Source: Eledone cirrhosa | Lineage: Eukaryota | NCBI GenBank assembly: GCA_964016885.1 | Contig: OZ024761.1 | Location: forward strand, 27,404,001 to 27,468,000 | Length of the DNA stretch: 64,000 bases | Reading direction: 5' to 3' | Shown here: positions 22,283-22,487 of the stretch, in pieces | How positions within the stretch are numbered: the stretch's first letter is position 1 | How the letters are laid out: every line of letters begins with the position of its first letter | Notes under the pieces: generated by a model | What the model was told of the DNA's origin: nothing | Seen by the model: the letters and a program-made list of their open reading frames with translations, nothing else | The model's database searches: none | Made by a program: the position numbers and the translations under genes

Positions 22283-22487
22283 TAAGAAACTGTTCAAGAC
22301 CCCGACGGCAGAGCTCAAGCTGTCTCGACGGCCACCTCTGGACTCAGAGTCCAGAAATAGCCGTCGAAACAGCCCGAGCCCTGCCGCCGGGGTCAAATAT
22401 TTTCCTATTACCCACTCTACTACCCTAAGTATTGAGTACTCCGGTGCGTTATGGTCCACCTGGTTCCTTACCACACTTCCTTTGTTA
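22283..22487 (+). mobile_element. Short palindromic PLE-tail-like element, family P (T>C-altered copy)
   Basis: Homologous to 62083-62300, including the tail TATTACCCACTCTAC...GGTGCGTTATGGTCCACCTGG. Confidence 0.75.

Follow-up and report, generated by a model that had tools for sequence, protein, structure and literature searches.

The stem of hairpin H1 holds eight mismatches in 47 pairs, every one of them a C opposite an A in the arm-versus-arm alignment, and the change behind them is T>C on the plus strand, or A>G on the minus strand. H1 lies in a window of 64,000 nucleotides of the Eledone cirrhosa assembly (G000:C22:27404001-27468000; the genome is 3.0 Gb and rich in microsatellites, with a repeat landscape reminiscent of coleoid cephalopods), where a 6-kb insertion of a Hydra-clade Penelope-like element (PLE) carries it as a passenger. 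Within the assembly the feature is real, and chance does not account for it. On the sequence comparisons below, the changes in H1 are very probably a DNA fossil of a read-through RNA that was hyper-edited by ADAR and then reverse-transcribed into this site by the Hydra-clade PLE. If true, RNA editing would here lead directly to a heritable change in DNA, and the edits would serve as a natural tag, or barcode, for the PLE replication cycle. The features discussed are collected in Table 1.

Table 1. Features of the insertion and its passenger (window coordinates)
Feature	Position	Strand	Remarks
A, carrier PLE 3' end unit with tail	19745..19996	-	essentially unedited: 1 private T>C, 2 in total, of 81 T
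Type I hammerhead ribozyme motif	19883..19949	-	CUGAGGA core, GAAA, stems of 8/3/3 pairs, AUA cut site
GIY-YIG C-terminal part of Hydra-clade PLE ORF	21312..21923	-	5'-truncated; joins A' via AAAA microhomology at 21916-21919
A', inverted copy of carrier PLE 3' end unit	21916..22132	+	34/85 T>C, no other change
Passenger sequence	22186..23617	- (inferred RNA strand)	colinear with G000:C21:6230220-6231911 (L082)
Hairpin H1	22298..22394	.	3' end of second PLE family plus inverted tail-less copy
H1 unpaired tail	22395..22487	+	ends at (TA)n; no new T>C inside
Fragment of another repeat in passenger	22598..22940	.	lacks an inverted partner and shows no excess of T>C; serves as internal control
Hairpin H2	23200..23392	.	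H1's family; 12 of 21 stem T changed T>C, none in tail
Inverted tail-less arm	23614..25765	+	mirror of 19840-21991; GTTA microhomology at junction

Direction and age of the changes in H1

The eight C sites of the stem are 22324, 22333, 22335, 22336, 22374, 22375, 22380 and 22387. As a background we used 88 other hairpins of the H family, a set that was compiled without 19 loci identical to a stretch of the window (later comparisons included those 19). Across their 5,073 pairs A.C and G.T mismatches are balanced, at 93 and 73, none of the hairpins has more than 4 A.C mismatches, and the probability of finding at least 8 A.C among 47 pairs against this background is 2e-6.

An earlier, sequence-only reading had held that H1 could be interpreted with no outside reference. 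This is not so, since C.A mismatches are symmetric and comparing arm with arm leaves T>C on one side and G>A on the other indistinguishable; the direction is fixed only by the family columns and a paralog. In 28 copies of the same subfamily T is the majority base at all eight C sites, and at all eight partner positions the window carries the majority A, which makes the direction T>C and not G>A in the opposite arm. The window's C is absent from all 28 copies at five of the sites, and is found in one copy at one site and in four copies at two. The strings that the earlier reading quoted for H1 are indeed present where it placed them, its count of about eight arm mismatches, each T>C on the plus strand, agrees with the family majority at all eight, and the G>A explanation that it had raised as the alternative falls with the partner positions. 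APOBEC-type DNA editing, with G>A in the sense strand from C>T on the cDNA, was rejected on the same partners and on the T>C change itself.

Genome similarity searches matched two separate parts of the interval to a single locus at C21:6.23 Mb, whose order is that of the window: H1, then a repeat fragment, a unique stretch of 190 bases, H2 and another 120 bases. Between the two H1 stems 7 of 74 bases differ, all as T>C; the change at 22362 belongs to C21 alone, so six are new in the window. The paralog has T at six of the eight C sites, while 22374 and 22387 carry C in both copies, so all eight are T>C against the family but only six of them are new relative to this paralog. The tail changes that had been reported against the copy at 62083 are present as differences, yet all lie outside the event except 22488, at the start of (TA)n, which is the sole new T>C at the edge of the H1 tail and the T>C one of the two differences from C21 in 96 bases of tail. 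Two others, 22441 and 22476, are the subfamily majority base, and 22442 is shared with C21. By these comparisons 22374, 22387 and the three tail changes predate the event or are subfamily variants.

Outside the stems the window and C21 diverge by about 2.8% with no direction, whereas the outer arms of the insertion differ at one site. The C21 copy is a relative of the template and not the template itself, since it has a 124-base deletion in H1 and a different insert after H2, and no A unit lies in the 22 kb around it. The 124 bases were lost between two short CTGT matches (L082 4242, G000:C21:6230242), which breaks most of that hairpin.

Ordinary mutation, whether as G>A decay in the opposite arm or as C>T hypermutation of the other copies with the window ancestral, is scarcely credible as the source of the eight changes. 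Two stem and three tail sites are admittedly older or subfamily variants, and most loci recovered elsewhere with two-site patterns are neutral doubles, but the family majority is T in the 28-32 copies per element that served as references for direction, the partners are A, the paralog has T, and background T>C is only about 1% per site.

The H hairpins themselves are the shortest insertions of a second PLE family, and longer H copies keep the same two ends. At L229 an H arm is continuous with an RT/GIY-YIG ORF that is 38% identical to P0001; in 12 other longer H copies no linked ORF was found, and eight of the 12 show a distant tail-less inverted arm. Our hammerhead descriptor failed to find a canonical core in the three H copies scanned, where the upstream core is non-canonical, and in the longer copies GAAAC, stem III, GUC and the stem I partner are visible. 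A MITE or fold-back DNA transposon, with fixed terminal inverted repeats and a target duplication, was rejected for these hairpins: they have asymmetric ends and a loop junction that differs from copy to copy, and longer copies enter an RT ORF.

Two stretches of the window adjoin this subject. At 63272-63506 there is an H copy with an internal partial arm duplication and no T>C skew. At 22488-22596 the (TA)n after H1 runs for about 100 bases peppered with C and without G, while the C21 counterpart is a short (TA)n with no other base. If (UA)n paired with itself and was edited, (TA)n could become (CA)n, but such mosaics are common in this genome.

A one-way change confined to three stems

The sequence-only reading had linked H1 to other altered elements in the same interval, naming no mechanism, and H2 and A' do show the same one-way T>C. 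With H1, H2 and A' pooled, 52 of 122 T are changed to C, against none of 119 A changed to G, and in A' the hammerhead core is destroyed. Measured against C21, 18 of 48 stem T are changed compared with 6 of 274 outside the stems (p=4e-12); unpaired passenger sequence is nearly clean of T>C. A 60-base repeat fragment at 23435-23497 was considered as edited and set aside as a subfamily variant, since the C alleles recur in a 94% identical copy at L059. Both strands of the duplex are changed in H1, H2 and two loci elsewhere in the genome (L230 and L151), and one strand only in A versus A' and at L231 and L232.

The neighbouring bases were compared on the minus strand with the three stems pooled, H1 alone having too few sites for a context test. 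Four changed sites do have a 5' G: A with a 5' G is changed in 4 of 23 cases and other A in 48 of 99 (p=0.009, or 0.003 when L151 is added). A with a 3' G is changed in 11 of 18 cases against 41 of 104 for other 3' neighbours, which is not significant (p=0.12). The adenosine deaminase domain A_deamin (PF02137) has 12 matches at four places in the genome; this family also covers ADAT and ADAD. Upstream G depletion, as seen in these stems, is the ADAR preference common to the animals surveyed in PMC5625713, which also reports a weak 3' G preference in invertebrates.

Misincorporation by the reverse transcriptase, placing C opposite A at a structured template with no deaminase involved, would likewise be one-directional and tied to retro-insertion. 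We consider it highly improbable, given a rate of about 40% in the stems and near zero over the adjoining 2 kb that was copied, the avoidance of 5' G, and the rarity of such changes among tens of thousands of equally structured copies.

We know of no ADAR activity on a DNA:DNA duplex. Deamination of DNA could take other forms, namely ADAR acting on the cDNA strand of an RNA:DNA hybrid or an unknown enzyme acting on folded single-stranded DNA, with plus-strand (ORF-antisense) RNA as the template. PMC12925331 cites ADAR editing of the DNA strand in hybrids, an antisense template is the model of PMC3846280, and the changes limited to one arm in the window, L231 and L232 would suit it. A hybrid would span the whole cDNA, however, and the changes follow self-complementary stems, both in the comparison with C21 and at L151, where the unpaired tail is changed at 0 of 32 sites; moreover, in H1, H2, L230 and L151 the two arms are changed on one and the same strand, as they would be in a folded single strand. 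DNA deamination is therefore unlikely, and editing of a folded RNA remains our preferred reading.

The carrier insertion and a proposed route

The passenger interval is the loop between the two mirror arms of the carrier, which differ by one substitution in 2,152 bases. The insertion has a tail at one end and none at the other, both at (TA)n, and these ends are standard for the family: in 14 of 20 long loci of the carrier family both orientations are present, each time with a tail at one end and none at the other. The agreement makes the insertion look genuine. A full family copy at L195 encodes a 747-aa ORF with RWR (for RWK), DKT, CxCX5C, CxxC and CxH, and the Hydra-clade assignment comes from comparing these motifs by eye with section 11 of PMC8557442. 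Pfam gave no real match for either the truncated or the full carrier ORF. The hammerhead was found by a descriptor scan of our own, and the descriptor matches A and the right arm and is lost in A'; an Rfam scan of 19000-27000 returned no hammerhead, but 48 weak matches, none at the gathering score and mostly microsatellite artefacts.

The changed strand is the ORF-sense strand of the carrier PLE. Nine changed sites of A' (21937-21991) are G at the mirror positions 23668-23614 of the inverted arm; the last of them also falls within the GTTA junction homology, leaving eight of the nine firm. No second copy of the changed A' was seen among the best 40 matches, the next being 84% identical. These results suggest that the changes came first and that the inverted arm was then copied from the same sequence, and the recurrence of the nine sites in mirror image makes it likely that both arms derive from one molecule. 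Conversion between the arms after insertion is conceivable, and if it took place it did not erase the mismatches in H1 and H2.

The bases of the window are known from the assembly alone, whose consensus could have taken in edited RNA reads or hairpin-related base-calling errors; polishing with RNA reads would also yield stem-limited, ADAR-like and mirrored changes. We nevertheless regard an assembly or polishing artefact as very unlikely. Beside about ten changed loci the genome holds 44,106 arms that are exact and unchanged, unit A is unchanged although it stands in perfect duplex with A' at this very locus, and the insertion ends as PLEs normally do and has junctions with microhomology. In the mirrored copy the change is A>G on the plus strand, so a strand-specific calling error would not account for it.

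The interval 22186-23617 copies a locus related to C21:6.23 Mb and lies in a PLE insertion whose ends are standard for the family. We propose the following route. A read-through donor RNA, of the minus strand as presented here, would have folded at each hairpin, and ADAR would have turned about 40% of its paired A into inosine. The PLE reverse transcriptase may then have started on unedited element RNA (unit A) and switched template to the edited RNA between 19996 and 21919, with the AAAA microhomology as the simplest place. It would have read inosine as G for 1.7 kb, with insertion into a (TA)n site. The inverted arm, in which the same junction and changed sites are found, would have been made from that same molecule, with the first cDNA strand as the simplest template, and attached through GTTA. 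H1 itself is likely inert cargo.

A template switch has to be assumed because unit A, the obvious partner of A', is unedited and lies two 1-base indels away from it. Between 20338 and 21660 the subfamily markers along B give no sign of a switch, so alleles do not locate the switch point. A real duplex partner of A' was not found, and there is none in the 22 kb around the C21 locus. Elsewhere in the window, at 39105-39612, the carrier's A unit forms a short hairpin that is unedited and tailed at either end, an element of the kind that could have partnered A'.

Other changed loci and known systems

Further loci, in two classes, were found with four narrow patterns and similarity searches. At the independent locus L151 both paired arms are changed, at 9 of 70 and 16 of 99 sites, A with a 5' G is changed in none of 22 cases, and a patch of 10 T>C outside the long duplex is unexplained. 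L229 has 30 T>C in 345 bases (4155-4499) on the same strand, and further same-strand clusters occur at L230 in both arms and at L231 and L232 in one arm only. Apparent clusters at L230 2001-2400 and L231 9001-9200 were discarded as microsatellite misalignment. The two-site patterns gave 33 loci outside the window, 30 of them with arm alignments, and these were mostly neutral doubles; four (L174, L175, L179 and L200) show clusters beyond the selected sites. Another pattern admitted an unedited subfamily base, and most of its 125 matches are single changes.

Mirrored clusters, in which both arms share sense-strand A>G, were found at L265 (3 of 3), L274 (5 of 5), L266 (3 of 5), L272 (3 of 4) and L267 (2 of 2). 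As these loci were picked by pattern, the mirrored sets could partly be variants of the source element. When only stable columns are counted, 4 of 13 hairpins in 15 selected loci share at least two changes, compared with 0 of 99 background hairpins. For the opposite polarity 0 of 25 hairpins share at least two stable T>C, while 8 share the selected T>C site, which leaves room for an antisense route. A rare single variant also stands in both arms of several hairpins (171 matches against the 44,106), for example at C1:356494360/443, C2:238739219/287 and C3:34346097/165, pointing to one template for both arms. At L231 (4936-5257) and L232 (4950-5085) the changes are limited, as in the window, to the antisense arm, which is 5' in the inferred RNA, and the sense arm at 3' has none. 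This hints that jumps from fresh sense RNA onto edited antisense RNA may recur. Changed hairpins are rare, at about ten loci beside so many exact arms, which suggests that most such hairpins form during insertion and are seldom moved as hairpin RNA.

Template polarity can be read from the strand of the edits, and their sharing between arms indicates whether the inverted copy has the same molecule as its source. PMC8557442 speaks of 'still undefined features' when it comes to how PLEs acquire tandem and inverted structures, and PMC3846280 does not decide between a sense and an antisense PLE template. We see about equal chances for and against the wider proposition, that PLEs have written ADAR edits back into this animal's heritable DNA at many loci. 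Each pattern would then be the barcode of a single molecule, and would show that ORF-sense RNA is what Hydra-clade PLEs copy, that they can switch to read-through RNA bearing edits, and that their inverted 5' copy is made from that same molecule, with the first cDNA strand as the simplest source. Beyond the window this proposition draws on the five hairpins with mirrored clusters.

The precedents for the window case are edited retroviral genomes and APOBEC-edited retrocopies. The review PMC12925331 describes A-to-G hyper-edited inverted repeats in avian retroviruses; in the ADAR-hypermutated genomes it covers (Rous-associated virus, avian leukosis virus and HTLV-2), near half of A is changed in clusters within an inverted repeat and fixed by reverse transcription, as here, but our case involves a cellular read-through RNA, a PLE carrier and copies at several loci of a genome assembly. 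APOBEC-edited vertebrate retrotransposon copies are alike in that clusters of one mismatch type in genomic retroelement copies record a host deaminase, and differ in being G-to-A, from C-to-U on the cDNA, and not stem-limited; A-to-G clusters were treated there as RNA editing or as a comparison class (PMC2873906). In literature on edited retrocopies and PLE mechanism, at the level of titles and abstract openings and with few subscription papers covered, there was no report of ADAR-edited RNA fixed in a genome by a retrotransposon, and the part consulted of one preprint (bioRxiv 10.64898/2026.07.22.740005) contained nothing relevant.

As for the carrier, Hydra-clade PLEs as described in PMC8557442 share the C-terminal GIY-YIG, RWK-like and DKT motifs, the CxCX5C linker, CxxC and CxH, as well as the hammerhead, the (TA)n target, the inverted 5'-truncated copy and a tail at one end. 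The tail here is about 90 bases whereas theirs is 30-40, and a 1.4-kb foreign passenger with edit-like changes sets this insertion apart. PLEs are reported to carry unrelated sequence in trans in Adineta vaga, where such sequence was captured between pLTRs and read-through transcripts and template jumps were proposed; an antisense self-priming template was favoured there and left open (PMC3846280), whereas the changes here point to an ORF-sense template.

The window also contains several other repeats. An element with inverted ends (62301-62439 and 63119-63262) occupies 62301-63262 between two H copies and looks like a decayed Tc1/mariner. A 183-aa ORF on the minus strand at 27187-27738, with no Pfam match, resembles the restriction-like endonuclease end of a non-LTR element. 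More inverted repeat pairs of other dispersed families, at 93-97% identity, are found at 14205-14753/27045-27591 and 18852-19353/26596-27100, and also at 15329-16108.
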